37,867 nt of DNA from an uncultured Bacilli bacterium (lineage in GTDB: Bacteria; Bacillota_I; Bacilli_A; RF39; UBA660): assembly GCA_947630195.1 (NCBI GenBank), contig CANRGQ010000002.1, positions 1 to 37,867 of the forward strand, read 5' to 3'. The position numbers were made by a program, and so were the translations under genes. Position 1 is the first letter of the stretch; each line of letters starts with the position of its first letter. Shown one piece after another: positions 2,561-35,914 of the stretch. The notes beneath the pieces were generated by a model. It did not search any database and was not told where the DNA came from. It was given only the letters and a program-made list of their open reading frames with translations.

Positions 2561-4261
2561 ATGGAACATGATTATGAAGGATGTAGTAATTATATTCAAA
2601 GAGTAACAGATATATATGTCGCAATTAAAGATAAAATCATTAAAAAAACCTATACTTCACTAAAAATTCCTTATACTTTAACGGATAAGGATAAAGTAGC
2701 GGTAGCCTTTTTCTTAGGGGGTTTCTTTACTAACAGTAAAATTAAAGACTATTTATATGAAGCCAATGATGTTAATTTAAATAGACTAATGTCTTTTGCT
2801 TGTTTAGAACAACAAGAACTTAAAAAATTACCAAGTAAAGAAGATTATGATGTCGTTTATGCAAGTAGTAGTATGGTCTCTTTTTTTAGAGAAATGATTG
2901 TTAATATAGGCTCACAATATCGCATTAATAAAATTTGTCCGGAATTACTTTACTTATCTTTAAGTTTTACTAATTTTAGTGAAGCTAATTTCTATAATTT
3001 ACTTGCTCAAAAATGTGGCTTAAATTGTTTAACTTTTAGTAAACATTCCATATTTCGAAAATTAGAAGATTACTTAATAAAAAATGAATTTGTTATACCT
3101 TTAAGTGAACAAGAAAAAGAAAGATTTAAAGGCATACCGGAAAAGTTAATTGAAAAAACTAGTATACAACAACGAAGATATGATAAATATTTGAAAAAAA
3201 CAGTTGAAGATTTACCAGACCCAGAACTTTTACCTGTCAGTTTTTTAAGTAAAGATAAAAGTCATTTATGGCAAATCTTAGATGATATTTTAAAGAAATT
3301 TATTGGCCAAGAAGAAACAGTGGAAAATTTATTTTATAATATTGTTAATAATCAACAATTATCTACTTTATCCGAAATATCTGATGGGGAAAGATCAATT
3401 ATCTTCTTAGATGGCCCAACAGGTACAGGAAAAACAGCAATTACAAGAGAAATAACCCAAAAGTTAAATATTCCTTTTACTTCTACTTCCATTGTTAATT
3501 ATTCTTCAACCGGTTATGTCGGCGGAGATATTACCGATACTTTAGTCGATTTATATCATAAAGCAGGGGACAATGTCAGTTTAGCCCAAAGAGGTATTAT
3601 TGTTTTAGATGAACTTGATAAACTAGCTACTGGTAGTGATGGCTTAGAAATGAAAAAAGCAGTGCAACAACAACTTTTAGACTTCCTTGGGGGCGGTAAA
3701 TATATAGTTGATGTCGGAGAAAACTTATTTGATAAGAAAAAAATAGAATTTGATACCTCTAAAATTACTTTTGTCTGTCTTGGAGCTTTATCTACTTTAA
3801 GAGAAGAAAAACAAGATACCAAAAGAAGTTTAGGTTTTAGTACCGAATCAAAAGATGAAGATAAAACAAATTATAGTATTACTCCTGATGATTTAATTGG
3901 TATCGGCTTAGAAAGAGAATTAGTAGGAAGATTTAATACATACTTACATACTAATGACTATTCTAAAGAAGACTTAGTAAGAATTTTAAAGGAATCCTCA
4001 ATTAGTCCATTAATAGGATTAGAAAAATGGATTAAGATGAATGGTAAAACTTTAGAAATAGATGAAGATGCTTATGACGCTATTGCGGAACATGCTTATA
4101 ATTTAAATACAGGAGCTAGAAGCTTACAAACAGTTATAAATAATATTAGAACTTACTACATGAAAGAAGTTTTAAGAGGAGATAGTCCAATTGTGCATTT
4201 AAATAAAGATACCATTAATAAAATTAATGAAAACTCTATTAACAGAAGAGTTAGAGGCTAA
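2561..4261 (+). CDS. ClpX-family AAA+ ATPase paralog with a non-canonical about 230-aa N-terminal domain
   Basis: An AGGGGGA RBS precedes the start. Residues from about 235 to 566 align by eye with ClpX: FIGQE, Walker A GPTGTGKT, pore loop GYVG, Walker B IIVLDELDK, VQQQLLDFLGG, FVCLGA, an LGF (IGF-like) loop, GRFN and sensor-2 GARSLQ. The Cys4 zinc-finger N-domain is absent. Confidence 0.75.
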   Translation: MEHDYEGCSNYIQRVTDIYVAIKDKIIKKTYTSLKIPYTLTDKDKVAVAFFLGGFFTNSKIKDYLYEANDVNLNRLMSFACLEQQELKKLPSKEDYDVVYASSSMVSFFREMIVNIGSQYRINKICPELLYLSLSFTNFSEANFYNLLAQKCGLNCLTFSKHSIFRKLEDYLIKNEFVIPLSEQEKERFKGIPEKLIEKTSIQQRRYDKYLKKTVEDLPDPELLPVSFLSKDKSHLWQILDDILKKFIGQEETVENLFYNIVNNQQLSTLSEISDGERSIIFLDGPTGTGKTAITREITQKLNIPFTSTSIVNYSSTGYVGGDITDTLVDLYHKAGDNVSLAQRGIIVLDELDKLATGSDGLEMKKAVQQQLLDFLGGGKYIVDVGENLFDKKKIEFDTSKITFVCLGALSTLREEKQDTKRSLGFSTESKDEDKTNYSITPDDLIGIGLERELVGRFNTYLHTNDYSKEDLVRILKESSISPLIGLEKWIKMNGKTLEIDEDAYDAIAEHAYNLNTGARSLQTVINNIRTYYMKEVLRGDSPIVHLNKDTINKINENSINRRVRG

Positions 4262-4263
4262 TT

Positions 4264-4608
4264 ATGAATTATGAATATAATGGTAATTTAGAAGAAAATG
4301 AAAGAATTAACCAAGTAGCTAAAGAAATAATTTCAAAATATCCTTTTATTAGTTTAAATAACGCCATTAAAGCCTCATCATTAGAAGGTAAAATAGATAA
4401 AGAAGTATCAATTACTGATAAATTAAATAGACTATATAATATTATGTTAGTTAGTAGTAATAATAAAGATATAGTTATGCTTATTTTTAAAGATTATTTA
4501 AATTTATTAAAAAATAATAATATTGATAATAAATATTATTATTTATCTCAAAGTATTAATGAATATCTATATAATTATAGTGATTTCCCTATAATTAGTG
4601 ATTTTTAA
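4264..4608 (+). CDS. hypothetical 114-aa protein, translationally coupled to the ClpX-like gene
   Basis: The ATG lies 2 nt after the upstream stop, and a strong terminator follows immediately. I found no recognisable motif. Confidence 0.5.
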   Translation: MNYEYNGNLEENERINQVAKEIISKYPFISLNNAIKASSLEGKIDKEVSITDKLNRLYNIMLVSSNNKDIVMLIFKDYLNLLKNNNIDNKYYYLSQSINEYLYNYSDFPIISDF

Positions 4609-4634
4609 AAGAAGATAGTGTTTATCTTCTTTTT
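4609..4634 (+). terminator. rho-independent terminator
   Basis: A 9-bp stem (AAGAAGATA / TATCTTCTT) with loop GTGTT is followed by a T-run. Confidence 0.75.
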
Positions 4635-4673
4635 AGTTTAATACTCTATCCATATTATACATCAATTAATCAT

Positions 4674-4958
4674 TTATTTATTAAATAATTCACTATGACT
4701 ACCAGTAGCCACTAATAAAAGATTATTCATGCTTTCTTCATATTGATAAATTAATAACCAATCAGATTCTATATGACACTCCCGACAATTCTTATAATAT
4801 CTATCATCTATTAACTTATGGTCTTTATAATTTGGTTCTAATATTTTTTTATCTGCTAATTTATCAATAACTTTTTTTAATTTATCTAGATTTTTGCCTT
4901 GTCTTCCAACTTTCTTATATTGTTTTTTAAAATTAGAAGATAATACAATTTTTAACAT
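4674..4958 (-). CDS. yafQ: type II toxin, YafQ/RelE-family mRNA interferase
   Basis: The 94-aa product contains YKDHKL...CHIESDWLLIY...TGSHSELF, which matches the YafQ catalytic His/Asp/Phe pattern. It overlaps the upstream antitoxin gene by 1 nt. Confidence 0.85.
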   Translation of the reverse strand: MLKIVLSSNFKKQYKKVGRQGKNLDKLKKVIDKLADKKILEPNYKDHKLIDDRYYKNCRECHIESDWLLIYQYEESMNNLLLVATGSHSELFNK

Positions 4959-5248
4959 TAGTTATCTAAATAATCAAATAACTCCTTAGTTGTTTCAAAA
5001 CTAGGAAGTTCTTTCTTTCCATTTTTGTAATCTTCCATTTCTCGTAAAGATTCTAATAATTCTTTACTAGGTTTTGGAGCCATAGTTGGCTTAAATGCCA
5101 AACCTTGTTCTCTCTCGCATTGTCTTAAAAACATATTAATTGCAGAGTTAGTAGTAGTTCCAAGTTTTTTAAATAATTCATCAACGCTTTTCTTTAAATC
5201 TTTATCAATTCTAATAGTCATATTAGTAGTATTAGATATCGTACTCAT
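4958..5248 (-). CDS. dinJ: type II antitoxin, RelB/DinJ family
   Basis: NMTIRIDKDLKKSVDELFKKLGTTTNSAINMFLRQ is a typical DinJ ribbon-helix-helix N-terminus. The start is taken at the internal ATG (5248), which is preceded by an AAGGGAAG RBS. Confidence 0.8.
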   Translation of the reverse strand: MSTISNTTNMTIRIDKDLKKSVDELFKKLGTTTNSAINMFLRQCEREQGLAFKPTMAPKPSKELLESLREMEDYKNGKKELPSFETTKELFDYLDN

Positions 5249-5297
5249 AAATATCACTTCCCTTTTAATAATACTATATTTGTTACTATAAATCAAG

Positions 5298-5325
5298 TGC
5301 AATGTATTTGCAATATATTTGCAAT
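5298..5325 (-). promoter_or_regulatory. three 11-bp-phased TTGCA(A/C) repeats, candidate DinJ-YafQ operator overlapping the -35 region
   Basis: On the minus strand the sequence reads ATTGCAAATAT ATTGCAAATAC ATTGCAC. The hexamer TGCAAT occurs at 5298, 5309 and 5320 on the plus strand. The repeats lie 50-77 nt upstream of the dinJ start. Confidence 0.45.
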
Positions 5326-5593
5326 TATATTGTATGTAGTATTTTTAAAATTATACATTATTAATAAACAAAGTGTTGGATAAATAATTAAATTTTATAT
5401 AATATAGATAGGAAACACAGAAATTACTTCCTGTGTTAGTCATTTATTTTAAACTAACATTTAACAAAAAGTCCATAGGAAATTTTGACAAGTTTTGTCG
5501 TATTTTATCAAATACTATTATATATTTTACCAATTTTAATTATTTGGAAATTAAACTAAAAAAAGTATAATTATTTAACTATACCTTTTTGTT

Positions 5594-7441: not shown

Positions 7442-10258
7442 CTATTTATTAGCGTCAAATATCTTCTTTAAGAATTCTCCCGTAAATGAACCTTTTATTT
7501 TACTTACTTCTTCAGGAGTACCAGTAGCAATTACATTACCACCAAATTTACCACCTTCAGGTCCTAAATCAATAACATAATCGGCTTGTTTAATAACATC
7601 TAAGTTATGTTCAATAACAATTACAGTATCGCCATTATCGACAATCCGATTTAAAACTTCCAGAAGTTTTTTTATGTCGGCAGAATGAAGTCCCGTTGTT
7701 GGTTCATCTAAAATAAATACGGATTTACCTGTCGCTTTCTTTTGAAGTTCTTTCGCTAGTTTTACTCTTCCAGCTTCGCCACCAGATAATGTTGGAGCTC
7801 CTTGACCTAATTTAATATAAGAAAGTCCTACTTCATTCATAACTTTTAATTTATCATAAACTTTCGGTATGTTTTCAAAGAATGGTAGGGCTTCACTTAC
7901 CCGCATATCTAAGACATCCGCAATACTTTTACCTTTAAATTTAACATCCAAAGTTTCTTTATTATATCTTTTACCCCCACAAACATCACAAGGAACGTAT
8001 ACATCTGGTAAGAAGTGCATTTCAATTTTCTTAACACCATCTCCCCAACAGGCTTCACATCTTCCACCCTTAACATTGAAGGAGAATCTTCCTTTATCAT
8101 ATCCTCGCATTTTAGATTCTTTCATGTTAGCAAAGACATCTCTAATATCATCAAAGACACCAACATACGTAGCGGGGTTACTTCTTGGAGTTCTACCAAT
8201 GGCATCTTGACTAATATTAACTACTTTATCAACATTTTCAATTCCTTTAACACCCTTACATTTACCAGGAATATCTTTCGAACGATATATTTCTTTATGT
8301 AAGGTCTTATAAAGTATTTCATTAACTAAAGTTGATTTACCACTTCCGGAAACACCTGTTACCACAATGAACTTATTTAAAGGAAATTTAACATTAATTT
8401 TATTTAAATTGTTTTCTTCAGCTCCTCTTACTTCTAAGAATAAGCCATTACCTTTTCGATGTTTCTTAGGAATTTCAATTTTTTCTTTGCCACTTAAATA
8501 ACGACCGGTAATACTTTTATCATTTTGCATTACTTCTTCTGGAGTACCAGCCGCCACAACATAACCACCAGCATCTCCGGCTCCAGGACCAATATCAACC
8601 AAATAATCGGCAGCGAGCATTGTATCCGTATCATGTTCAACAACAATTAAAGTATTCCCTAAATCGCGCATTTCTTTTAAAGAATTAATTAATTTTTCAT
8701 TATCTCTTTGATGAAGGCCAATGGATGGTTCATCTAAAACATATAAGACACCCGAAAGTTTACTGCCAATTTGAGTTGCTAGTCTTATTCTTTGGGCTTC
8801 TCCTCCTGATAAGGTTGCCGCACTTCTTGCTAAAGTTAAATAACTTAAACCAACATTCATTAAGAATTCTAATCTCGCTAAAATCTCTTTAATAAGGAGG
8901 CCACTAATCTCTTTTTCTTCATTAGTAAGTTTTAAATTTTCTAAAAATCCTTTTAATTCATCAATAGCCATTTCCGTAAGTTCATAAATATTTTTCTTGT
9001 TAATTTTAACGGCTAAAATCTCGTCTTTTAATCTAGTTCCATGACATTCATTACAAACGGATTCCACCATAAAACCTTCAATCCATTCTCTAATCCAAGA
9101 AGAATTGGTCTCTAAATAACGTCTTTCTAAGTTATTAACAATACCTTCATATTTACTTTTAGTATCTCTGGTACTACCATTCTTCGCTACATAATGAAAA
9201 TCCATTATATCATTGGTTCCATATAAAATAATATCTAAATCTTTTTTAGGCATATCTTTAACTGGAATATCTAAATTGATATGGTAATGTTCGGATACCG
9301 TATATAAACTGCTCATATACATATTGTTATCTAAGTTGATAGCCACAATGGCTCCTTTATTAATGCTTTTATTTTTATCGGGAATTAATAAATCTTCACT
9401 AATTTTAAGCTTCGTACCAAGTCCCTTACATTCATCACACGCTCCATATGGCGAGTTAAATGAAAACATTCTGGGTTCTAACTCACTTAATGAGAAATTA
9501 CAATAAGGACAAGCATAATTTTCACTCATTAAAAGTTCCTCTTCATCATTTATCTTAATAAGAACTAATCCATGAGCCATTTTAGCACTTACTTCTAAGG
9601 CTTCAAAAATCCTGCTTCGCTCATCACTACTAACTCTTAATTTATCAATTAAAACATAAATATCATCTTTAATATTTTTTTCTAAAGTAATTTCATCCGT
9701 ACTATTATATAAAGTTCCATTAACTAATATTCTTGTGAATCCCTTACTACGTAAGTCCTCAATTAAATCTTTATGAGTTCCTTTTTCCCCTCTTACAATT
9801 GGCGAATATATTTCAATCTTCGTTCCTTCTTCAAAATTTAAAACTTTATTTGTCATTTCTTCTATACTTTGACTTTTTATTGGTATTTTATGCGTAGGAC
9901 AATAAGGTACCCCAATTCTCGCAAATAAAAGTCTTAAATAATCGTATAATTCGGTGATAGTTCCCACAGTTGAACGGGGATTTTTATTGGTGGTTTTTTG
10001 GTCAATCGAAATACTTGGCGAAAGTCCTTCAATGGAATCCACATCCGGTTTATCACCCGAACCAATAAATTGGCGGGCATAAGCTGACAGGCTTTCCACA
10101 TATCTTCTTTCTCCTTCAGCGTAGATAGTATCAAAAGCCAAACTACTTTTACCACTTCCGGAAACTCCCGTCATGACAATTAATTTGTTTTTAGGTAGTT
10201 CCAAATCAACATTTTTTAAATTATTTTCTCTTGCTCCTCTTATAACAATTTTATCCAT
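7442..10258 (-). CDS. uvrA: excinuclease ABC subunit A
   Basis: The 938-aa product has two ABC modules (GVSGSGKSSLAFDT and GVSGSGKSTLV), LSGGE signatures, and zinc-finger Cys pairs (CPYC, CDEC, CEAC, CDVC). Confidence 0.97.
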   Translation of the reverse strand: MDKIVIRGARENNLKNVDLELPKNKLIVMTGVSGSGKSSLAFDTIYAEGERRYVESLSAYARQFIGSGDKPDVDSIEGLSPSISIDQKTTNKNPRSTVGTITELYDYLRLLFARIGVPYCPTHKIPIKSQSIEEMTNKVLNFEEGTKIEIYSPIVRGEKGTHKDLIEDLRSKGFTRILVNGTLYNSTDEITLEKNIKDDIYVLIDKLRVSSDERSRIFEALEVSAKMAHGLVLIKINDEEELLMSENYACPYCNFSLSELEPRMFSFNSPYGACDECKGLGTKLKISEDLLIPDKNKSINKGAIVAINLDNNMYMSSLYTVSEHYHINLDIPVKDMPKKDLDIILYGTNDIMDFHYVAKNGSTRDTKSKYEGIVNNLERRYLETNSSWIREWIEGFMVESVCNECHGTRLKDEILAVKINKKNIYELTEMAIDELKGFLENLKLTNEEKEISGLLIKEILARLEFLMNVGLSYLTLARSAATLSGGEAQRIRLATQIGSKLSGVLYVLDEPSIGLHQRDNEKLINSLKEMRDLGNTLIVVEHDTDTMLAADYLVDIGPGAGDAGGYVVAAGTPEEVMQNDKSITGRYLSGKEKIEIPKKHRKGNGLFLEVRGAEENNLNKINVKFPLNKFIVVTGVSGSGKSTLVNEILYKTLHKEIYRSKDIPGKCKGVKGIENVDKVVNISQDAIGRTPRSNPATYVGVFDDIRDVFANMKESKMRGYDKGRFSFNVKGGRCEACWGDGVKKIEMHFLPDVYVPCDVCGGKRYNKETLDVKFKGKSIADVLDMRVSEALPFFENIPKVYDKLKVMNEVGLSYIKLGQGAPTLSGGEAGRVKLAKELQKKATGKSVFILDEPTTGLHSADIKKLLEVLNRIVDNGDTVIVIEHNLDVIKQADYVIDLGPEGGKFGGNVIATGTPEEVSKIKGSFTGEFLKKIFDANK

Positions 10259-10458: not shown

Positions 10459-11481
10459 TCATTTTTTTAATAATTTATAAGACATACTTCCTAATTTATC
10501 ATCACATTTATTTTGCATACTGCCATTATAAGTATTTTCTATTTCTCCTTCCGGCGTAAAATAGTATATTTGACAAGTAAGCATATCTTTATAAACCCGA
10601 ATCGGAAGAGTTGTTCTTATTCCTAAATGAAAGTATCCTTTATAACCAATTGAGCCCATTCCTCCCGAACAATGCACGTGATACCCAAGTCTACCTAAAG
10701 AACTTCTTCCACTAATCATGGGAATTAAATTATTAGTTTCGGTCCACTCATTAGTTCTTCCTAAATAAGTTTTATCGGGATACAAAATAGTTCCTTCTTC
10801 GCCAATATTAAAATATTCTACTTTATTCTCTTTTTTGATATCTAAAATGGGATCTGTATAATAACCCATCTTCGGATTTAAACTTAAATTAACGGAATTA
10901 GGATTAATTAATATTTTATTACCCGGATTAATAATGATATCACCCGTAGTCATTCTTTTCTTTATTTCATCACCACTAAGCATGCCAATTTCTTGGCTAG
11001 TCTCATCTAAACTTTTAAAAAATGTTAGATTACCCACTTCAATATTGGGATAAATTATTGTGGGTTTCGTACAAATTATACTAAGTAAAAATGGTCCATC
11101 ATAATTATCCGTACCATAACCACTCGTAAGTTCAATACTAAGTCCTAGCAAGGATAAAGAAGTTCTTCCATGCATAACCGGAATATAACCTTTAGTTTTA
11201 ATATTCTCATTAGTCTTAGCTAAATAAACTTTATGAGGCTCTAAAAGCATACCACTCTTAGGTATTCTTGTTTTTCTTAATTTATTAATAACACCTTTAA
11301 ATACTTCTTCTTGGTATTCATAACTTTCTTTAGTATCTACCACCATATAATCATAAAAATATAATTCATCACTTAAGGTAATGCGACAACTATTGGGTTT
11401 ATCTAAAGCATTATCTAGCATATTATCTATTTGAACATTTCCTAAATCTATTTGTTTTTTTATTTCTTTATTTGTGAGCAT
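10459..11481 (-). CDS. tandem (two-module) dCTP deaminase/dUTPase-fold protein
   Basis: There are two internal repeats. Each begins L(T/S)xxEIKK and contains a Dcd-like core: HGRTSLSLLG...LLSIIC in the first and SGRSSLGRLG...HLGIRT in the second. The canonical catalytic Glu of the Dcd 'LE' motif is replaced in both modules. Confidence 0.7.
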   Translation of the reverse strand: MLTNKEIKKQIDLGNVQIDNMLDNALDKPNSCRITLSDELYFYDYMVVDTKESYEYQEEVFKGVINKLRKTRIPKSGMLLEPHKVYLAKTNENIKTKGYIPVMHGRTSLSLLGLSIELTSGYGTDNYDGPFLLSIICTKPTIIYPNIEVGNLTFFKSLDETSQEIGMLSGDEIKKRMTTGDIIINPGNKILINPNSVNLSLNPKMGYYTDPILDIKKENKVEYFNIGEEGTILYPDKTYLGRTNEWTETNNLIPMISGRSSLGRLGYHVHCSGGMGSIGYKGYFHLGIRTTLPIRVYKDMLTCQIYYFTPEGEIENTYNGSMQNKCDDKLGSMSYKLLKK

Positions 11482-12022
11482 GATGATCTTCCTTTTCTAA
11501 CACTTTTACCCTTTTATATTCTTTAGCCATCCTTGATTCCGTAGCTTCAACTTGCCCAAAGTATTTCCCCCGATAAACATTTTCGCTATTACCTATTAAA
11601 GGATAATAATAAATTCTTCCGATTGGAATATTAGGATATACTATCGTCGGATTAGCACATATAATTTCCAAAGTCCAAGTTCCTTCAAAACCATTATCGC
11701 CAAAACCAGCGGTAATGTGAATTTCCACACCTAAACTAGCCAGTTCGGTAATTCCCGATAAAAGGGGCACAAAACCATAAGTTTTGGTGTATTCATTAGT
11801 TCTTCCTAAATATAGTTTATTAGGTTCTAACATAAGACCTTCAGGAGGTATCTTAATAACTTTAGTAGGACTTGGATTTTGTACATCTAAAAAAGGTGTA
11901 TCATAGACTTTTAAAGTATCCCCTAAAGTTACTTCAATATAATTTTCACCCAGTTTGTCTTCCCAATTAGATACATAGATATTATTTGGTATTTCTTTTT
12001 TTAAACCTTCTTTATTTAACAT
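11468..12022 (-). CDS. single-module dCTP deaminase-fold protein (degenerate Ser/Arg motif, Glu retained)
   Basis: The sequence reads LEPNKLYLGRTNE...SGITELASLGVEIHITAGFGDNGFEGTWTLEIIC...YRGKYFGQ, which resembles the Dcd core and the C-terminal GKYxGQ. It overlaps the downstream tandem gene by 14 nt. Confidence 0.7.
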   Translation of the reverse strand: MLNKEGLKKEIPNNIYVSNWEDKLGENYIEVTLGDTLKVYDTPFLDVQNPSPTKVIKIPPEGLMLEPNKLYLGRTNEYTKTYGFVPLLSGITELASLGVEIHITAGFGDNGFEGTWTLEIICANPTIVYPNIPIGRIYYYPLIGNSENVYRGKYFGQVEATESRMAKEYKRVKVLEKEDHHAHK

Positions 12023-12031
12023 AAAACCTCC

Positions 12032-13558
12032 TTACTTTTCTTTAATTAATTTTTTATCTTTTTCGATAAAATCACTATAATCATTATTATAAATTACTTT
12101 TTTGACTTTTTTACCTATTTCTGTATTTTGATATTTAGTTATAATTCTATCTATAACAATATCTTTAGTTAATAAATAATAAGTAGAAATGTACATTAAT
12201 TTCTTTAAGATATCTACTTCTGCATATCCTTTTAAGATTTCTATTAAAAATACTCTTGCTACCATGTAGAAATCCTCAAAATCATCTTTGGTAAATTTAT
12301 CTAAAGGAACACTTTCTAATACTTTAAGAAAATTCTTTTCTTCCGTTAAACTTTCGCCATAGTTATCTAATAAAAATAGTAACCGAGATTTAACATTTTC
12401 TAATTCTTCATTATTTCCATATTTATTTATAAGATAATGCGCTAAAATGATATATCTTAAATAAAAGGCGCGAGTAATATTTTGATTATCTAAATAAAAC
12501 TTAAATAATTCGATGACCTCTTCTATTTCACTAATTTCTTCCTCTTCATCATCTTCGTCTTCTTTGTCATCATCTTCTACTTCATCTTCAAAATCATCAT
12601 GATAAGCCGCCATTTTTTCTTCTATTTCTTCCCTTTCTTCTAAAAATTCATCAGGGAAAATTGGTTCTGCTAAACAAGAGCCATAATCTTCTTCGGATAA
12701 TTCTTCATCATCATTACTGTTTTTGGCTTTGGCAAATTTTTTATATTCAAATAAGCCTTGTATATCCATAAGTAACTTATCACAAGCAATTGATTTAGTA
12801 CCAAAAATAGCATCATAAAAACTATTCTCTAATAAATACTCTAATTTTTTCTCATGTAACTCACAAAATTTATCTTTTATAATATCTTCACTAAGTAAGT
12901 CATAATCGTCATCATCATTTAACAATCCTAAACATCTAATGATAGTATCATAACATCTAATTTTCGCATAAGAAGAATTTCCTATTTTAGTTAAAGTGTT
13001 AACAATAAACTTAGAAATAGTTTCTATATTAGGACTATTCTTAATAATTTTATATTCATAGTAATATTTTTCTAATATTTTTTCTACTTCTATAAGTTTT
13101 AAAACTTCATTCTTAATTTTCGTAGCATGCAAAGCATCCATAGGTTTTAAATGTTTACTAAAACCTATTAATTCGCCACATATTAACTGATTATAAGGAT
13201 TTTCATAAAAAGGAAGATCAAATTTCACATCCCCAAATGATTCCATATCAACATCTTCTTTTATATAAATTCTTTCATTATCATAAGTAAAATATTCGTC
13301 ATAATTAATTAAAAAATTTTCAAAGTTTTTTCTTTCTTCTTCTAAAGATATATTAAGTCCATAATTATGAAATTCTTTAAGTAATTCTGGGAAATATTCA
13401 TCATCATATTCCTTAAAACGACTGTGATAATCAATATGTTCTTGAATTAGAGCAAGACGATAATTATGTAATTCTTCAAAAGTTAAAGACCTTTTATCTT
13501 CATAATCGTAATATCTTTCAAAGGCTAAAAAGATTATAAAATCAAAATAATTCTCCAT
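12032..13558 (-). CDS. hypothetical highly acidic 508-aa protein with a poly-Asp/Glu tract
   Basis: This is a long ORF with no TM segment. It contains the tract DDFEDEVEDDDKEDEDDEEEE and many other D/E/Y/F-rich stretches. It lies 9 nt upstream of the Dcd-like genes. I do not recognise a family. Confidence 0.6.
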   Translation of the reverse strand: MENYFDFIIFLAFERYYDYEDKRSLTFEELHNYRLALIQEHIDYHSRFKEYDDEYFPELLKEFHNYGLNISLEEERKNFENFLINYDEYFTYDNERIYIKEDVDMESFGDVKFDLPFYENPYNQLICGELIGFSKHLKPMDALHATKIKNEVLKLIEVEKILEKYYYEYKIIKNSPNIETISKFIVNTLTKIGNSSYAKIRCYDTIIRCLGLLNDDDDYDLLSEDIIKDKFCELHEKKLEYLLENSFYDAIFGTKSIACDKLLMDIQGLFEYKKFAKAKNSNDDEELSEEDYGSCLAEPIFPDEFLEEREEIEEKMAAYHDDFEDEVEDDDKEDEDDEEEEISEIEEVIELFKFYLDNQNITRAFYLRYIILAHYLINKYGNNEELENVKSRLLFLLDNYGESLTEEKNFLKVLESVPLDKFTKDDFEDFYMVARVFLIEILKGYAEVDILKKLMYISTYYLLTKDIVIDRIITKYQNTEIGKKVKKVIYNNDYSDFIEKDKKLIKEK

Positions 13559-15243: not shown

Positions 15244-15271
15244 GAAAAAAAGAAATATTCTGCATATTTCT
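15244..15271 (-). terminator. rho-independent terminator after the activase operon
   Basis: A stem (AGAAATA / TATTTCT, 7 bp) is followed by a T-run of six or more on the minus strand. It overlaps the stop codon. Confidence 0.65.
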
Positions 15272-16229
15272 AAACTTTTGCTTTAACTTTAATAGCTCCT
15301 TTATCACATTTATTACCCCAAGCATCAATAAGTTCCCCATCTTTATAAACGCAAATTCTCTCACAATTATTGGCACATCCTTTGCATTCAATACCTTTAG
15401 TTTCAAAAGTAACATCTTCAATATTAAAATCAAAACTTACCTCCGGAGCTTTTTTAGATAAAATGGCTACGCCTAAGGCCCCCATTAAATGGGAATTAGG
15501 GTCCACAATAATCTTTTCGCCAGTGGCTTCTTCAAAGGCTTTAATAACTCCGACATTCTTAGATACTCCGCCTTGAAATACTATCGGAGCACTAATCTTT
15601 TTACCTTTACCAACATTATTTAAATAGTTATTAACAACAGCCTTACAAAGACCTGCGACTATATCTTCTTTTTTATGACCAATTTGGGCTTTATGAACTA
15701 AATCACTTTCGGCAAAAACGGTACAACGAGCCGCAATATTAGTGGGATTCTTGCTTCTTAAAGCCATTTCCCCAAATTCTTCGACTTCTAAACCTAATCT
15801 TTTTGATTGACTAGATAAGAAAGAACCAGTCCCCGCTGCACATAAAGTATTCATGGCATAATCTGTTACAATACCATGGTCAATAATAATTATTTTAGAG
15901 TCTTGGCCTCCAATTTCAAAAATGGTATGGACATCAGGATATAATGATAAAGTTCCAATCGCATGAGCCGTTATTTCATTTTTAACAATATTGGCTCCTA
16001 AGATAACCCCAATTAATTTACGAGCGGAACCGGTCGTTCCTACTCCCACTACTTTATATTTTTTCTCATTAAATTGTCCTTTTAAAATACTTATTAATCT
16101 TTTAACGGCCCCAATGGGGTCTCCCTCAGTCCAGATATATTCACTAGCTAGTATTTTATTATCTTCATCTATTATTATTCCCTTGGTAGATATTGAACCA
16201 ATATCTACACCCATATAGGCTTTTTTCAT
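15270..16229 (-). CDS. BcrAD/BadFG-family ATPase (2-hydroxyacyl-CoA dehydratase activase-like)
   Basis: It has the actin-fold ATPase motif MGVDIGSISTKG, then GVGTTGSA and EIGGQDSK, and a C-terminal Cys cluster (CKGCANNCERIC...C). Confidence 0.8.
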   Translation of the reverse strand: MKKAYMGVDIGSISTKGIIIDEDNKILASEYIWTEGDPIGAVKRLISILKGQFNEKKYKVVGVGTTGSARKLIGVILGANIVKNEITAHAIGTLSLYPDVHTIFEIGGQDSKIIIIDHGIVTDYAMNTLCAAGTGSFLSSQSKRLGLEVEEFGEMALRSKNPTNIAARCTVFAESDLVHKAQIGHKKEDIVAGLCKAVVNNYLNNVGKGKKISAPIVFQGGVSKNVGVIKAFEEATGEKIIVDPNSHLMGALGVAILSKKAPEVSFDFNIEDVTFETKGIECKGCANNCERICVYKDGELIDAWGNKCDKGAIKVKAKV

Positions 16230-17305
16230 TTTATCTTTTTTTCCTTTCTCATCATAATCATATCGTAGAAGGCCTCAATTCTCGTATTAATACCCACATC
16301 ACTAGTTTGGGTATCAAAACTAAAATAAATAATTGGTATTTTATAGTCTTCACTAATTCTTTCTAAAACCGGCATTGTATCAATCTCGGGAGTACACCCA
16401 AAACTTTTAACATGAATGATGCCATCAAAATTATCTTTGGCATAATCTAAAGCTTTTTTAATCGTATACATGGAAGTGGCTCCCATATCATATTTTGCAT
16501 AATTTTTAATACTTTGTTTAATTTCTTTCACATAATTATGAAAAATACTATTGGATACATTCATCCACCTTTCAATAATAATCCCTTTTTTAGCGAGTTC
16601 CTTCTCCATATAATGATTGCTGTATTCATCCATTATCGTGTAGTATTCGCCAACAATACCGACTCTTAAAGGATTTTTTGGTTTATTAGTTTCCACTCTT
16701 TTTAGTTTACTCATATAAAGTTTAGCTATTAAATTTAATTCTTTTTTATCATTAACTTCTTTTAAGTCCTCTAAAAATTCTTTATGTAATTTTTCAAAAC
16801 TACCGTCAACGACTTCAAAGCCAACATTTTCTCTAATATAGTCTTCGACTTTATCAATAACTTCCACCATTTTAACAGCCAGTAAAACAGCACTTGTTAT
16901 CTTTTTTAAATTAACACTTGGTTTAATCTTTTTAAATTCTTCATAAAAAGTTAAAGGTTTGGAAAAATCAGCATTAGCCATATTGACAAATCGGACCTCA
17001 TAACCTAAATCTTTTAATATTTGCTCATGTAATTCTCCGTAGTAATTTAAACGACAAGCTCCCCCTACTTGAATTAAGGTATTGGCTCCGGCTTCAATGG
17101 CTTCAATGTAACCTCCTAATTGATATTTAAAAGGTGTACATACAAAATCTGGAGAATACTTAGCCCCAATTTCTAAAGTCTTCTTTGTAATGGGTGGAGC
17201 ATCCACATAATCTACCCCAAGACCATTTACAATAATATGTCTTACGGCTACATTATAAGAACCAAAACGGGGAAAATTAACTTTTACTTTACTCATGAAT
17301 GCCAC
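16226..17305 (-). CDS. acyl-CoA dehydratase activase-related protein, C-terminal (DUF2229/HgdB-like) part
   Basis: By eye it resembles the non-ATPase portion of large 'CoA-substrate-specific enzyme activase' fusion proteins (SPDFVCTPFKYQLGG, GIVGEYYT). It overlaps the activase gene at an ATGA junction. Confidence 0.55.
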   Translation of the reverse strand: MAFMSKVKVNFPRFGSYNVAVRHIIVNGLGVDYVDAPPITKKTLEIGAKYSPDFVCTPFKYQLGGYIEAIEAGANTLIQVGGACRLNYYGELHEQILKDLGYEVRFVNMANADFSKPLTFYEEFKKIKPSVNLKKITSAVLLAVKMVEVIDKVEDYIRENVGFEVVDGSFEKLHKEFLEDLKEVNDKKELNLIAKLYMSKLKRVETNKPKNPLRVGIVGEYYTIMDEYSNHYMEKELAKKGIIIERWMNVSNSIFHNYVKEIKQSIKNYAKYDMGATSMYTIKKALDYAKDNFDGIIHVKSFGCTPEIDTMPVLERISEDYKIPIIYFSFDTQTSDVGINTRIEAFYDMIMMRKEKKIK

Positions 17306-18215
17306 CTTCTTTTTGTAAATTTAAAATATCCACAAAACTTTCTAGTCTTGTTTCTAGTCCTGCTGTTCCTTCTTGACCATCTAAAACTAAATTAATAATG
17401 GGTTTTCCTTTAATCTTTCTGACAATCATTTCATTAACTAAAGAATCCGGTCCACAAGGAAAAGAGGAAGCTAAAATAATTCCATCAACTTGATCAAAGT
17501 ATAGGGAAATAGCTCCGACGAGTTCTTTGTTAAAAGTCCAAGGTAAAGTCGCACTAATCTTTTTCGCTTTTTCTCTAGCTTTCTTTTCATCAACCACACA
17601 GGCTAATATAGGTTCACTACCTAAATCTTTTAAAGTATCAGTAATAGGTTTTCCGACATATTCATCATAAATATTATAAGGATGGGATACAATTAATATT
17701 TTTAATTTATCATTTTTAAGTAAATTATTTTGATTATTAATTTCAATCATCTTGGCGGTCTTCTCCGCTTGTTTGGCTATATAATAAGCTTTTAATACTT
17801 GCACCTTTTTCTTACCTAAAAACTTACCCATCTTAAGGAAAGCTTTAAGTTCCGTATCTTTATTTAAAATATCAATACTATAATATAATATTTTTAAATT
17901 CTTTTCTCTATAAATATTATTAATAACATCATAAATGGCTTGAAACTTTGAACAAACAATATCTTTATTAGACCCTAGGGATGCTACTCTCGGAATAAAA
18001 ATATAATCACATTTATCTATTAAATAATCAACATGCCCTGTAAAAATCTTACTAGATAAACAAGATTCATCCATCGCATGCATTTCGCCTCTTTTAATAA
18101 TATCTTTATTCGTTTTGGGACTTACAACATATTCAATTCCTAGTTCATCAAAAAATGTTTCCCATAAAACATGATATTTATAATATAAAAAAGCTCTTGG
18201 TATCCCAATTTTCAT
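17289..18215 (-). CDS. acyl-CoA dehydratase activase-related protein, N-terminal DUF2229-like part
   Basis: MKIGIPRAFLYYKYHVLWETFFDELGIEYVVSPKTNKDII...DESCLSSKIFTGHVDYL is typical of the DUF2229 start. It overlaps the next gene by 17 nt. Confidence 0.6.
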   Translation of the reverse strand: MKIGIPRAFLYYKYHVLWETFFDELGIEYVVSPKTNKDIIKRGEMHAMDESCLSSKIFTGHVDYLIDKCDYIFIPRVASLGSNKDIVCSKFQAIYDVINNIYREKNLKILYYSIDILNKDTELKAFLKMGKFLGKKKVQVLKAYYIAKQAEKTAKMIEINNQNNLLKNDKLKILIVSHPYNIYDEYVGKPITDTLKDLGSEPILACVVDEKKAREKAKKISATLPWTFNKELVGAISLYFDQVDGIILASSFPCGPDSLVNEMIVRKIKGKPIINLVLDGQEGTAGLETRLESFVDILNLQKEGGIHE

Positions 18216-21625: not shown

Positions 21626-22570
21626 TTATTTTATTTCTATCTGCCACTTTGGTGGATACACATAATCTATTTTATCATCTTTTGGTATATATTTCTTTTT
21701 AATTTTAACGCGATTAGACTTTAAATCCGGTAACTTTACTCGACAATATTTATCTAGTTCACAAAAAATATTTTGGCAATCGATAAGTTCTAAAGGACGA
21801 TTTCCGATTCTTTTAAAATCAAGTCCTAATCTTTTAAATTCTTGCTCTTGATTTTCATACATATAACGAATAATATCCTCATAACTTAAACCATCTCTAT
21901 CTATAAAACACTTTCTTATTCCTCTTATAGAACCAGGACCCGCAATGGTAAATTCATCTTCTCTAAAGTCTACTACTTCACTATAGTTAATATCAGTTAC
22001 TAATTGATAAGCCATAAAATTACCTATTAAAGGATAACTTCTTAAGATATTAAAAGCCTCTTCCATACTTTTACTTTTAATTATTTTATCTTGCACTAAA
22101 TCTTCCAAAAACATTTTATGAAGTAAGGCTAAATGATTATCGTGTTTATAGTCATAACCAAAGGCTTTAGTGGCACAACTAATGTAGGCATCATTATATA
22201 GTTTTATTCCTTCATTTTTAGCCTTAGTTAAAACTTTAGAATATTCTTCCATATTAAAACCTTCTAAAGTTATATCTTTAAAATTATTTATTAATAATTC
22301 CCAAGTACTTTCTTTATTAAATAATTTAAATAAAATAATCCGAAATAACATATCTTCTTTTGAATATTTCTTCCCATTATAAATAACATTTTTAAGAAGA
22401 TATTGACTAACCCGGTCATTAACCCTGTAACTATTACAAAATTTGTATTCTCTTAAAATGGGGTCATCGGTCCAAGGGGACGCCTCACCTTTTAATTTCT
22501 TCCAAAAGATATTTTGTCTTTCCCAAGCAAAATACCAATATAAATTGTAAACTTCCTCTCTTACTTTCAT
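21626..22570 (-). CDS. protein resembling the helical domain of 5-hmdU DNA kinase / aGPT-pyrophosphorylase-type base-hypermodification enzymes (no P-loop)
   Basis: The N-terminal pattern is W..ERQNIFWKKL.G..SPWTDDPILREYKFCNSYRVNDRVSQYL, with FMAYQLVTDINYS later. I recall both from 'nucleotide kinase domain'/HMUDK-helical family proteins. No GxxxxGK[ST] motif is present. This assignment is from memory only. Confidence 0.4.
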   Translation of the reverse strand: MKVREEVYNLYWYFAWERQNIFWKKLKGEASPWTDDPILREYKFCNSYRVNDRVSQYLLKNVIYNGKKYSKEDMLFRIILFKLFNKESTWELLINNFKDITLEGFNMEEYSKVLTKAKNEGIKLYNDAYISCATKAFGYDYKHDNHLALLHKMFLEDLVQDKIIKSKSMEEAFNILRSYPLIGNFMAYQLVTDINYSEVVDFREDEFTIAGPGSIRGIRKCFIDRDGLSYEDIIRYMYENQEQEFKRLGLDFKRIGNRPLELIDCQNIFCELDKYCRVKLPDLKSNRVKIKKKYIPKDDKIDYVYPPKWQIEIK

Positions 22571-22571
22571 T

Positions 22572-23558
22572 TTACCTCATACACTTTGGGTCTTTTTCCC
22601 TTAATATTCTTTTAAATGATTTATCACTACTTGCTATAATTTTTTGCCCTAAACAACCACTTTTACAAATGTCATAATTTTCACATCCACTGCAACTAGA
22701 CTCCTTTTGAATCTCTCTTAAATTTTTAAAATAAGAAGAATTATATAGTTCTAATAAACTATTATCTTTAATGTTACCACTTACTCCTAAAACATGAAAA
22801 TATTTAACCGAATCACAAGGATAAGCTACCCCATCAAAGCCAATAATCATTATTTCATCCCCAATAACACAAGGACTATTTTGGATACCTAAAATATTCC
22901 AAGGTGAACCTAGTCTTATTTTATCTTGAAATAAACTATTTAAGTAAAATTTCTTTAACTCTAAAAGTTCTTTCTTACTTAAATCCATATCAATAGTGCC
23001 TTTTTCATGGGGAACAAATCTTAAAATACTAACCTTTTCAAAATAAGGTTTATCTTTAAAAGTGTCTATTGTATAATTTATAACTCTTGCAAAATTCTTA
23101 AAAGAATCTTTGCTTAAGGCATAATGAAAACCTAACTCTCCCTTATTATCTTTAAAAACTTTATCAAAAAATTCTTCATTAGTATATTCTGATAAGTCAT
23201 CTTCTAAAGAAAGAGTATCCGCTAGAGAATAAATAATTTTATCTAAACCAGAATTTATTAAATGTCTATATTTTCTTAGATTTTCTTTAGTTTTATAAGC
23301 AAAAGTATAAATGGTTGTTTTTAAATCTAAACCACTTGCTAAACTTATAAGCAAATCTAAATTTTTATACATTAAAGGTTCGCCACCGGTAAAAACAATA
23401 CTTTGGGCACCCATTTCTTTGGCTTCTAAAATAATTCTAGCGACATCATCAAAAGAAAGTTCCTCTAGGTATTTTTTATCATTCGTTGCTCTACTAGAAC
23501 AATGAAGGCAATTACGCATACATCTGTTAGTTAATTCAATTTTGACTTCCTTTAACAT
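22572..23558 (-). CDS. radical SAM enzyme with C-terminal SPASM/twitch-type auxiliary cluster domain
   Basis: It has C13-x3-C17-x2-C20 (CMRNCLHC), an FTGGEPL SAM-binding motif, and the C-terminal cluster PCD...CSGCENYDICKSGCLG. A GGGAGGG RBS precedes the start. Confidence 0.85.
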   Translation of the reverse strand: MLKEVKIELTNRCMRNCLHCSSRATNDKKYLEELSFDDVARIILEAKEMGAQSIVFTGGEPLMYKNLDLLISLASGLDLKTTIYTFAYKTKENLRKYRHLINSGLDKIIYSLADTLSLEDDLSEYTNEEFFDKVFKDNKGELGFHYALSKDSFKNFARVINYTIDTFKDKPYFEKVSILRFVPHEKGTIDMDLSKKELLELKKFYLNSLFQDKIRLGSPWNILGIQNSPCVIGDEIMIIGFDGVAYPCDSVKYFHVLGVSGNIKDNSLLELYNSSYFKNLREIQKESSCSGCENYDICKSGCLGQKIIASSDKSFKRILREKDPKCMR

Positions 23559-23667: not shown

Positions 23668-25389
23668 ATGAAGAAGTTAAAAGGGTTTAAAACAATATTA
23701 AATGTGGCTAAAGAATATAAAAATAAAATTATTATATCTTCTTTAGGTATTGTTGTTTGTAGTTTTTCTTCCATGCTAGTAGGTATTTTAAATGGTAAAG
23801 CCCTAGAAGAAATTACCAAACTTAATCTTAAAAATGCCATTTTAATTTTACTTATCTATTTATTTTCCGAATTATTCTTTAATTCTTTAAATAAACTTTC
23901 GACTTCTAAACTATCCAAAACCGAAGTCCAAATATCAAGAAAAGTTGCTTACCTTACTTATGAAAAAACATTATCTTTACCAGCTTATGCTTTTGAAAAG
24001 AAATCAAGTGGCGAATTTATCAATCGTATTACGAGTGATAGTCAAGTTATCATTAATTCTTTTGATCAACTTTTATTTCTTACCTCAAATTTTCTAGCTT
24101 CATTTATCATTTTAATTTATATCTTTTTTAATTCTTATATCGTGGCTTTCGAAATTATTATTTTCATCATTATTTTTGGAATCTTTGTTAAAATTTTTCA
24201 TCCCTTACTGGAAAAAGTTAATAAAGAAAAGAAACAATTAAATGATATCGCCATTACCCAAATTAATGAATCCGTAAGAGGTATTCGCGAAATTAAAACT
24301 TTAGGTATTAAAAATAATTTATTTAAAAATTTAACTACTTTAATTACCAAACAATTAGAAAAATCTAATAAAGAAATTGATTTATATATGATTTATGATT
24401 TAATTAGTAATTCTTTAAAAAGTATTTTAGAAGTTGGAGTTTTTATCACCTGTGCTGTTTTACTTTATAAGGGTTCTGTTAGTCTTACTTTCTTTGTGGC
24501 TATGACTTATTACATTTATCGTTATACGTGGATTATTGAAAACATCACTTCATTTACAAGAACTTATAATGAAACCAAAGTATCTGTTAAAAGAATTAAT
24601 GAAATTTTAGAAAATGAATTATTTAGTGATGTTCATTTTGGTAATGTTACTTTAGATAATCCTAAGGGAATTATTAAATTTAATAATGTTACATTTAGTT
24701 ATCCCAATGAAAAGGATACTTTAAAACATTTTAGTATTACTTTTGAACCCAATAAAAAAATTGGTATTGTGGGAAGAAGTGGTCAAGGTAAAACAACTAT
24801 TTTTAATCTTTTAACAAGAGTATTTGATGTAAGCATTGGTTCTATTACAATTGATGGCGTAAATATTGAAGAATTAACCGAAGAAAGTCTAAGGCAAAAT
24901 ATTTCTATTATTAGACAAGATCCTTTCTTATTTAATAATACGATTAAAGAAAACTTTAAACTTTTAGATGAAAATATTACCCTTAAAGAAATAAGAAAGT
25001 ATTGCCAAATGGCCTACATTGATGATTATATAATGACTCTACCGAAAAAATATAACACTGTTTTAGGAGAAGGTGGCGTTAACTTATCGGGAGGTCAAAA
25101 ACAAAGATTAGCTATAGCCAGAGCCCTTGCTAAAAAGAGTAAAATCATACTATTTGATGAAGCCACTTCCGCTTTAGATAATGAATCCCAAGACTACATA
25201 AAAAAAGTTATTAATGACTTAGTTAAAGACCATACCGTTATTATTGTCGCTCATCGTTTATCCACCATTAAAGATGCCGATGTTATCTATGTTATTTTAG
25301 ATGGTAAAGTTAATGATATGGGTACTCATAAAGAATTAATGCAAAAATCTAGTATTTATAAAAAATTATATCAAAGTGAAGAAAAGTAG
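23668..25389 (+). CDS. ABC exporter, fused permease/ATPase (type I exporter, MsbA/bacteriocin-exporter-like)
   Basis: The N-terminal half has six TM helices. The C-terminal NBD has Walker A GRSGQGKTT, signature LSGGQKQRLAIARAL and Walker B ILFDEATSALD. There is no C39 peptidase domain. Confidence 0.9.
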   Translation: MKKLKGFKTILNVAKEYKNKIIISSLGIVVCSFSSMLVGILNGKALEEITKLNLKNAILILLIYLFSELFFNSLNKLSTSKLSKTEVQISRKVAYLTYEKTLSLPAYAFEKKSSGEFINRITSDSQVIINSFDQLLFLTSNFLASFIILIYIFFNSYIVAFEIIIFIIIFGIFVKIFHPLLEKVNKEKKQLNDIAITQINESVRGIREIKTLGIKNNLFKNLTTLITKQLEKSNKEIDLYMIYDLISNSLKSILEVGVFITCAVLLYKGSVSLTFFVAMTYYIYRYTWIIENITSFTRTYNETKVSVKRINEILENELFSDVHFGNVTLDNPKGIIKFNNVTFSYPNEKDTLKHFSITFEPNKKIGIVGRSGQGKTTIFNLLTRVFDVSIGSITIDGVNIEELTEESLRQNISIIRQDPFLFNNTIKENFKLLDENITLKEIRKYCQMAYIDDYIMTLPKKYNTVLGEGGVNLSGGQKQRLAIARALAKKSKIILFDEATSALDNESQDYIKKVINDLVKDHTVIIVAHRLSTIKDADVIYVILDGKVNDMGTHKELMQKSSIYKKLYQSEEK

Positions 25390-32084: not shown

Positions 32085-32177
32085 GAAATTTTTTATTAAT
32101 TATTACGAAATATATATAAAAGACAGTTTTTGTTGTATAATATAAATGTTTAAAAAGCGTTAAAGAAGGTGTTATTT

Positions 32178-34984: not shown

Positions 34985-35914
34985 ATGCAAAGAAAATTTT
35001 ATAATGAAATAACCAAAATTATTGAAAATTATGAAGTAAATAAAAAGGTAAGAGAAAGACAAAATAATAGAGAGGAATTATTATCTAAATGGAAAATTGG
35101 GAAACTTCTAGTTGAAGCCCAAGGTGGAGAGCAAAGAGCTAAATATGGAAATAAATTAATCAACGAATGGTCGAAAGAGTTTTCATTAATTTATGGAAAT
35201 GGTTATAGTGCTAGAAATTTAAGAAAAATGCGCCAATTTTATCAAACATTTCCAATTTGGCCGCCAGTGGTGGCCAAATTATCATGGTCACATATTATGG
35301 AACTTTTATCAATAAAAAATGAAAATGAGAGAAATTATTATATTAATCAGGTTATCTTGAATAATTTATCAAAAAGAGAATTAAGAAAAGAAATAAAAAA
35401 TAAATCTTTTGATAGATTATCTTATGCTGATAAAAATAATATAAAGTTAATTGATAATAACAAGAATTTACCAATATCAATTAGGGATATGATTAAAGAT
35501 CCAATAATACTAGAAACTAATAAAAATATTTCTAACTTAAATGAAAAGATAATTCATAAAGAATTAATTAATTTACTCGAAAATAAATTTTTAGAATTAG
35601 GTACGGGCTTTACTCTTGCTGGTCATGAATACAAAATAACCCTTGATAATAAAACTTATAAAATAGATTTACTTTTCTTTAATGTCGAAATTAATGCCTA
35701 CGTTGTTGTGGAAGTTAAAAATAGAGAATTTAAACCAAGTGATATAGGGCAAATTGATTTCTATATGAAACTTATAGATGATAAACTTAGAAAGAATTAT
35801 CATAACAAAACTGAAGGTATCTTAATAGTTAAAGAAAAAAATAAATATATTGTTAAATATATGACTAATGATAATATTTATATTACAAATTTTAGTTTAG
35901 AGCAAATATCTTAA
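34985..35914 (+). CDS. YhcG/DUF1016-family PDDEXK nuclease-domain protein
   Basis: The N-terminus has the YhcG pattern (WKIGKLL...YG..LI...S......GYS.RNL..MRQFY..F......LSWSH...L). The C-terminus has a PD-(D/E)xK-like core (IDLLFFN...VVVEVK). Confidence 0.8.
   Translation: MQRKFYNEITKIIENYEVNKKVRERQNNREELLSKWKIGKLLVEAQGGEQRAKYGNKLINEWSKEFSLIYGNGYSARNLRKMRQFYQTFPIWPPVVAKLSWSHIMELLSIKNENERNYYINQVILNNLSKRELRKEIKNKSFDRLSYADKNNIKLIDNNKNLPISIRDMIKDPIILETNKNISNLNEKIIHKELINLLENKFLELGTGFTLAGHEYKITLDNKTYKIDLLFFNVEINAYVVVEVKNREFKPSDIGQIDFYMKLIDDKLRKNYHNKTEGILIVKEKNKYIVKYMTNDNIYITNFSLEQIS

Follow-up and report, generated by a model that had tools for sequence, protein, structure and literature searches.

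A putative pseudo-heterotrimeric dCTP deaminase encoded by two overlapping genes in uncultured gut Bacilli

The superfamily of deoxyuridine triphosphatases (dUTPases) and deoxycytidine triphosphate (dCTP) deaminases (Dcd) is commonly used to illustrate active sites that span identical subunits. The subunit contributing motif III supplies the base pocket and the Asp, and in Dcd also the catalytic Glu, the motif II of its neighbor carries the essential Arg115, and motifs I, II and IV bind the triphosphate. The three sites of Dcd communicate, resulting in an all-or-none feedback by deoxythymidine triphosphate (dTTP). Here, we describe a pair of genes on a stretch of 37,867 nucleotides (nt) from an uncultured Bacilli bacterium (contig CANRGQ010000002.1 of assembly GCA_947630195.1), the whole of which is referred to as the window. 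The pair encodes three divergent modules of the Dcd fold, one in a protein of 184 amino acids (aa) and two in tandem in a 340-aa protein. We named the 184-aa protein module A, and residues 1-166 and 167-340 of the 340-aa protein modules B and C, respectively. Modules A and B-C probably form a pseudo-heterotrimer with one composite catalytic site between A and C, whose most likely task is housekeeping dCTP deamination.

Several departures from three identical subunits have been described for the dUTPase branch. In trimeric dUTPases, each site consists of one subunit's motif III together with motifs I, II and IV from its neighbor, and in the variants with two-subunit sites the motif at the C-terminus cooperates with the motif III that belongs to the same subunit (PMC12524310). 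The monomeric dUTPases of herpesviruses combine domain 1's motif III with motifs I, II and IV from domain 2, and their other faces decay (PMC12524310). A single-chain pseudo-heterotrimeric dUTPase occurs in Drosophila virilis, and covalent human dUTPase trimers have been engineered with sites deliberately inactivated (PMC12524310; PMC4827122). For the deaminases, a three-site cooperative inhibition by dTTP has been described (PMC4827122). Full-text literature searches for a dCTP deaminase of heteromeric or tandem make-up returned nothing.

The window pair resembles Dcd and the bifunctional DCD-DUT enzymes (PF22769, TIGR02274; structures 1XS1, 1OGH, 2QXX and 4XJC) in fold, in motif set and in holding all catalytic elements across the assembly. 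It differs from them in having three non-identical modules on two polypeptides, none of which carries the full motif set, and in that no more than one of its three sites between modules can be catalytic. Judged by its motifs, the pair fails the defining property of Dcd and DCD-DUT, i.e., a full motif set in every subunit. Because at most one site can be catalytic, the three-site cooperative dTTP inhibition cannot operate here in the same way. With the D. virilis and the engineered human trimers, the pair shares three dUTPase-fold modules in one trimer-like body. The modules of those proteins are near-identical, whereas A, B and C have only 31-36% pairwise identity and complementary losses; in addition, two chains (1+2) are the usual state here and single-chain fusions are the minority. 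The herpesvirus monomeric dUTPase (Epstein-Barr virus [EBV], 2BSY) is likewise a dUTPase-fold protein that is duplicated and has a single active site, but it is viral, belongs to the dUTPase rather than the deaminase branch, and holds two domains in its one chain, so that the third position stays empty. By sequence, the window pair is a member of neither of these dUTPase groups.

Gene layout and family assignment

The window has a GC content of ~28%, and nearly all of its genes lie on the minus strand. In agreement with a preliminary description of this DNA, three minus-strand open reading frames (ORFs) follow each other closely: a gene for an acidic 508-aa protein (12032-13558), the module A gene (11468-12022) and the B-C gene (10459-11481). 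The stop of the 508-aa ORF is separated by 9 nt from the start of module A, and the A stop overlaps the B-C start by 14 nt (11468-11481). A strong Shine-Dalgarno sequence, AAGGAGG, precedes the module A gene, and a Shine-Dalgarno-like AAGGAAG is located ~7 nt ahead of the B-C ATG. The 14-nt overlap is consistent with translational coupling of the two genes.

The Pfam family PF22769 (DCD) matched the 184-aa protein once (E = 2.8e-20) and the 340-aa protein twice (E = 4.7e-47), so the 1+2 arrangement of three DCD-fold modules, as first described, holds. Summed over its two modules, the 340-aa protein reached 115.6 bits for the dCTP-deaminase equivalog TIGR02274 of NCBIfam (cut-off 92.8). A sequence search of the PDB gave significant matches exclusively to Dcd or DCD-DUT, and the dUTPase family PF00692 had no significant match to the window proteins (E = 0.16). 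Both DCD genes carry the label "dCTP deaminase" in the public annotation.

The tandem B-C protein has ~130 cluster-level homologues at a minimum of 49% identity. In a locus scan with one genome per species, it was found in 44 genomes of uncultured gut Bacilli/"Tenericutes" from rabbit, chicken, mouse and human, including Candidatus Onthousia, Faecenecus and Ventrenecus. The module A gene is located directly upstream of B-C on the same strand in 43 of these 44 loci, and the single locus lacking it begins at a contig end. Among the 39 unfused loci, the distance from the A stop to the B-C start ranges from -23 to +1 nt; the genes overlap in 37 loci and are 1 nt apart in two, and the overlap of 14 nt is the commonest (20 loci). 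Four genomes (loci L018, L034, L038 and L039) encode an in-frame A-B-C fusion. Fusions of this kind also make up five protein clusters (P0021, P0040, P0086, P0087 and P0096) of 484-550 aa. Because the fusion linkers are unrelated in sequence and length, they suggest that the fusion arose repeatedly. When a library clustered at 50% identity was searched, the tandem family was down to a few representatives and all the rest had a single module, which confines the 2+1 architecture to a narrow clade. The ratio of nonsynonymous to synonymous substitution rates (dN/dS), measured against three relatives, is 0.03-0.23 for all three modules and 0.07-0.23 for module B. All three modules are thus under purifying selection, including module B with its decayed pocket.

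The Bacilli-type pair was observed on contigs labeled as metagenome-assembled genomes of "uncultured Muribaculaceae" (L007, L008, L011, L012, L038, L039, L042 and L045). These co-assembly bins seem to be mislabeled taxonomically.

Complementary motifs and the proposed assembly

The modules were aligned to Escherichia coli Dcd and to the closest canonical Dcds (from Ruminococcus, Megasphaera and Planctomycetes; 41-49% identity to modules A and C), and conservation was tabulated over 119 A, 107 B and 107 C sequences. Module A alone of the three retains the base pocket, the catalytic Asp and Glu, and the C-terminal lid. Its motif III with the catalytic Glu (HITAGFGDNGFEGTWTLE, residues 102-119, 11666-11719 on the minus strand) keeps HxTAGFGDNGF...TLE at 99-100%, including the HxTA allosteric loop and the equivalents of Asp128 (Asp109, 99% conserved) and Glu138 (Glu119, 100%). 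In the lid, YRGKYFGQ (residues 150-157, 11552-11575, minus strand), the two Tyr, the Lys and the Gln all show 100% conservation. Module A has degenerate motifs I, II and IV (GENYIEVTL, GITELASLG and IGRI). Across homologues, Arg110 is replaced by Leu or Thr, Ser111 by Glu or Asp, Arg115 by Ala or Thr, and the motif IV Gln by Arg or Lys; the window protein has Leu, Glu and Ala at positions 110, 111 and 115 (E. coli numbering).

Module C (10459-10983 on the minus strand, including the stop codon) alone retains motifs I, II (GRSSLGR) and IV intact. These motifs (NPNSVNLSL, GRSSLGRLG and TCQI with Gln304) are invariant, and PNSVNL, GRSSLGR and CQ are 97-100% conserved among all C homologues. In motif II (residues 258-266, 10684-10710, minus strand), the Gly, Arg, Ser, Ser and second Arg are each at 100%, as is the Gln of motif IV. 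The pocket of module C (HCSGGMGSIGYKGYFHLG) is conserved yet non-catalytic, because Ser replaces Asp and Gly replaces Glu at the 128 and 138 positions; across homologues it reads HCSAGMGSIGY...H(M/L)G, with a further change of Thr to His, and the lid is partial (YNGSMQ). Module B (10984-11481, minus strand) has a pocket without Asp or Glu (ELTSGYGTDNYDGPFLLS) and no lid. This pocket is drifting, as none of its 18 positions is conserved at 95% or above. Module B keeps part of motifs I, II and IV (KPNS, G(R/K)xSLSLLG and GNL, with an invariant Asn at the motif IV position).

None of the three modules carries the full motif set of a subunit (Arg110, Ser111 and Arg115 together with Asp128 and Glu138). 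The assembly as a whole holds every catalytic residue: Asp109, Glu119, the HITA loop and Lys153, Tyr154 and Gln157 from A, and Arg259, Ser260, Ser261, Arg264 and Gln304 from C. The complementary pattern is 95-100% conserved per position, and on these alignments it lies far beyond chance. All motifs quoted in the preliminary description were located (GITELASLG, TWTLE and GKYFGQ in A; GRTSLSLLG and LLSII in B; GRSSLGRLG and HLGIRT in C). Its claim of complementary degeneracy stands in that the motifs are strictly complementary, but the modules are not each missing a different element. There is a clean split instead, with a motif III/Asp/Glu/lid half-site in A, a motif I/II/IV half-site in C, and neither pocket nor lid in B.

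Conservation was also calculated for each face as the mean frequency of the most common residue. The motif III face of A (0.97) and the motif I/II/IV face of C (0.93) are conserved, in contrast to the motif III face of B (0.63) and the motif I/II/IV face of A (0.74, equal to the background), which is the pattern of working and decayed faces seen in the herpesvirus type. The values for the remaining faces are 0.78 for motifs I/II/IV of B and 0.90 for the pocket (motif III) of C.

We infer that the 184-aa and 340-aa proteins assemble 1:1, and the complex would have the three-barrel architecture of homotrimeric Dcd and DCD-DUT. Given the trans geometry of the superfamily, the only complete site would be that of A against C, because A keeps motif III, the Glu and the lid, and C keeps motifs I, II and IV. 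The A:C interface would thus unite the pocket, Asp, Glu and lid of A with motifs I, II and IV of C. In it, motif III and the Glu of A would act as the base-binding, deaminating half-site, and motif II of C as the phosphate-binding half-site with the equivalent of Arg115. The C:B interface would form a strongly conserved, catalytically disabled pocket to which B donates its motif I/II/IV face, the B:A interface would be fully degenerate and dead, and module B would serve as a structural third subunit. The predicted ring order is A(III)-C(I/II/IV), C(III)-B(I/II/IV) and B(III)-A(I/II/IV). This order is favored because the face values pair sensibly there alone (0.97/0.93, 0.90/0.78 and 0.63/0.74, respectively), and the opposite handedness would set the invariant GRSSLGR of C against the decayed pocket of B.

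The same ring order is reached from a separate family. P0338 is a stand-alone two-module DCD protein of 347 aa from metagenomes of a different lineage (loci L068-L071; 5001-6044 in L068), with 36% identity and no adjoining single-module gene. Its upstream module has motifs I, II and IV without a lid, and its downstream module has motif III, the Glu and the lid; a short linker, similar to the one from B to C, connects them. The complementary split is therefore the same as in the window pair, but P0338 has two modules only and its catalytic module is downstream, whereas here the catalytic module is a separate upstream protein. P0338 looks like an independent, "monomer-like" dCTP deaminase family. 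Because two barrels share one interface only, an active P0338 would need its downstream pocket to face the upstream motif II. If this geometry is applied to the B-to-C pair, motif III of C would face motif II of B, and ring closure would then set motif III of A against motif II of C.

Structure prediction was performed with a natural fusion. The AlphaFold2 model of P0021, which has 60% identity to the window B-C, reached a predicted template modeling score (pTM) of 0.86 and a mean predicted local distance difference test score (pLDDT) of 83.8, with disorder limited to the A lid/linker and the extreme C-terminus. This is the confidence expected of a compact three-barrel body. A joint alignment of fusions, singles and tandems was abandoned, as MAFFT placed the single modules onto module C when tandems were present. 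Single modules of the P0021 model were superposed by Foldseek onto Dcd and DCD-DUT chains with template modeling (TM) scores of 0.7-0.84. To the EBV dUTPase, the TM score was ~0.34 and the root-mean-square deviation 8-9 Å; the likeness to the herpesvirus enzymes is analogous and of independent origin, not a family-level homology.

The best PDB match to the P0021 model was 2R9Q, a two-domain "2'-deoxycytidine 5'-triphosphate deaminase" of Agrobacterium (PF06559 + PF22569), with a TM score of 0.73 over ~355 columns. Because two consecutive modules superpose on 2R9Q, which has a tandem packing, such packing of successive barrels is already known from a crystal. The identity to 2R9Q is only 14%, and the likeness to the window family is structural only: the window proteins had no match to PF06559 (DCD_N) or PF22569 (DCD_C) at E ≤ 1, and the family profile had no match to the 2R9Q sequence at E ≤ 10. 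Some homologues show weak matches to PF06559 or PF22569 (1e-5 to 1e-7). We know of no third-module partner of the 2R9Q-type family. Candidates for this family obtained by tblastn on plasmids were rejected, since those checked were ordinary one-module Dcd genes.

Taken together, the clade-wide adjacency and overlap of the two genes, the natural fusions, the high pTM of the fusion model and the complementary conservation of motifs support the core of the preliminary description, namely an obligate pseudo-heterotrimer with fewer active sites. Several points weigh against the proposal. That Arg115 and Glu138 come from different subunits in canonical Dcd was taken from the motif geometry of dUTPases, and the handedness of the ring was assigned from the concordance of conservation and by analogy. 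The alignment behind the P0021 model (fusions plus tandems) is deep for B and C, and module A is represented in it by five fusion sequences. The 184-aa protein scores 57.3 bits for TIGR02274, i.e., under the cut-off of 92.8. The substrate and activity of the complex are predicted from sequence, and the housekeeping role is deduced from distribution and genomic context.

The complex most likely deaminates dCTP to deoxyuridine triphosphate (dUTP), or straight to deoxyuridine monophosphate (dUMP) if it is bifunctional, because module A has the deaminase-specific Glu and the Dcd-type signature. Its most likely role is the housekeeping supply of dUMP and dTTP for thymidylate synthesis in reduced-genome gut Bacilli. 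In the window, the neighbors of the pair encode UvrA, a cyclophilin, YbjQ, MerR and Lgt. In other lineages they encode valyl-tRNA synthetase (ValRS), an HD protein, desulfoferrodoxin or ABC transporters, and tRNA synthetases occur among the neighbors overall. PADLOC gave no match for either DCD protein. Because the pair is clade-wide in changing, ordinary neighborhoods and has no PADLOC match, housekeeping is the most economical reading. The preliminary description had named this outcome as one that would refute its more speculative part, and distribution and context now make it the most probable one.

One alternative accepts the complex as proposed and changes its chemistry. Its substrate could then be a different nucleotide, it could be a dUTPase only, or its main role could be nucleotide binding or regulation. 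The pocket of module C is highly conserved but remodeled (Asp to Ser, Thr to His, Glu to Gly), which suggests the binding of a ligand without catalysis, and the sub-threshold equivalog score of the 184-aa protein points in the same direction. However, module A keeps HxTAGFGDxGF...TLE at 99-100%, including the deaminase-specific Glu that dUTPases lack, module C keeps GRSSxGR with the equivalent of Arg115, and the nearest solved relatives are dCTP deaminases and bifunctional DCD-DUTs. We consider a chemistry other than dCTP deamination unlikely.

It is appreciably less probable still that an A homotrimer and a B-C oligomer act apart, with B-C as a regulator or an inactive paralogue and the adjacency as a remnant of duplication. 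Canonical family members are homotrimeric, and the assembly of A with B-C is deduced rather than taken from experiment, both of which would fit separate proteins. Under such circumstances, an A homotrimer would lack the motif II Arg/Ser and the Arg115 equivalent at every interface, and a B-C oligomer would lack a catalytic Asp or Glu anywhere, and yet both genes are under purifying selection. In the locus scan A and B-C were never found apart, and several fusions join them into one chain that is modeled as one compact body.

Within the preferred pseudo-heterotrimer, the conserved C:B pocket may be reserved for regulation by a bound nucleotide such as dTTP, and would signal to the A:C site via the central-channel loops. 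This is possible, though we regard it as rather doubtful. The candidate pocket would be made of HCSAGMGSxGY...H(M/L)G and the partial lid of C, together with KPNS, G(K/R)xS and the Asn of B. If so, a homotropic, cooperative three-site enzyme would have become heterotropic, with catalysis, regulation and structure each assigned to a module of its own, a natural counterpart of the asymmetric trimers that enzymologists had to engineer.

If the proposed assembly is correct, it offers a ready-made asymmetric trimer with which to probe the residues acting in trans and the extent to which regulation depends on three sites. It would also be a case of subfunctionalization within a homo-oligomer with intermediates at hand, i.e., the split and fused forms and the independent two-module family. 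The annotation would have to be corrected, since both genes are labeled "dCTP deaminase" and neither should be active alone, and this affects metabolic reconstructions of uncultured gut Bacilli. For enzymologists, and for the annotation of these gut bacteria, the system is moderately interesting.

The acidic 508-aa protein and antiphage defense

The protein encoded upstream of module A has an isoelectric point of 4.5 and consists of 23% Asp and Glu, with the tract DDFEDEVEDDDKEDEDDEEEE from residue 321. It was described at first as having no recognizable family, and indeed it belongs to no Pfam, NCBIfam or PHROG family; all its matches to PDB sequences were above E 0.1. Its AlphaFold2 model is poor (pLDDT 55, pTM 0.40), and Foldseek with this model found nothing below E 0.4. 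In PADLOC, it has a weak match to SIR2 at chance level (E = 0.008). The dN/dS of 0.13-0.38 was measured for this gene. Only three homologues were found in 5.8 billion proteins. Among the related loci, the gene is present in L001-L003 only, and in L002, with a tandem protein that shares 97% identity with that of the window, a gene for a 416-aa membrane protein lies between the acidic gene and module A. The single distant homologue, P0243, is encoded between unrelated genes with no DCD gene adjoining. The acidic ORF is a real gene, a genus-restricted neighbor outside the conserved unit, and the earlier suggestion that it is part of the system finds no support in this distribution.

Two rearrangements were observed at these loci. 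In L002, at 4016-5346, the inserted gene for the multi-pass membrane protein is preceded by a duplicated stub of ~26 residues of the module A N-terminus, which is the footprint of a local rearrangement. In L001, the acidic gene is tandemly duplicated, with a partial copy at 3-458 (at the contig start, matching residues 357-508) followed by a full 505-aa copy at 471-1988.

Deamination of dCTP is a known defense strategy in other protein families, and the preliminary description had raised the possibility of a role in antiphage defense. The known defense dCTP deaminases have the zinc cytidine-deaminase fold, which is unrelated. Nucleotide depletion against phages, or a regulatory operon including the acidic protein, would fit the tight packing of the three genes on one strand in the window, but it is scarcely credible and was rejected on distribution and genomic context, given the blank PADLOC result for the DCD proteins and the chance-level SIR2 match of the acidic protein, the restriction of the latter to three closely related genomes with its adjacency interrupted in L002 and its distant homologue located elsewhere, and the clade-wide occurrence of the DCD pair in changing, lineage-variable housekeeping contexts rather than in islands.

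Other genes in the window and in relatives

A further arrangement of DCD modules was seen in the representative library, where the 361-aa protein P0371 has a complete DCD module (residues 3-142) fused to a PF00692 dUTPase domain (residues 213-343). A single chain would then carry the two reactions that lead from dCTP to dUMP.

The stretch 21626-23558 of the window (minus strand) includes a gene for a 314-aa protein whose full length matches (E = 1.8e-106) the Pfam family HMUDK_hel, the helical domain of 5-hydroxymethyldeoxyuridine (5-hmdU) DNA kinase; the protein has no NCBIfam name. A radical SAM/SPASM gene lies directly upstream, and a divergent gene for an ABC exporter adjoins the latter (23668-25389, plus strand). 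The pairing is unusual for a bacterial chromosome; being ~10 kb away, the HMUDK_hel gene is probably unrelated to the DCD pair.

The window also contains a RelB-antitoxin-like ORF (4958-5302, minus strand) and a gene for a YhcG/DUF1016 nuclease of the PDDEXK type (34985-35914, plus strand). Both uvrA (7442-10258, minus strand) and uvrB (32169-34133, plus strand) are present, ~22 kb apart. A three-gene cluster at 15270-18215 (minus strand) encodes a BadF/BcrA-type ATPase, an HGD-D-like protein and a DUF2229 protein ("CoA enzyme activase"), which is typical of systems like 2-hydroxyacyl-CoA dehydratase.

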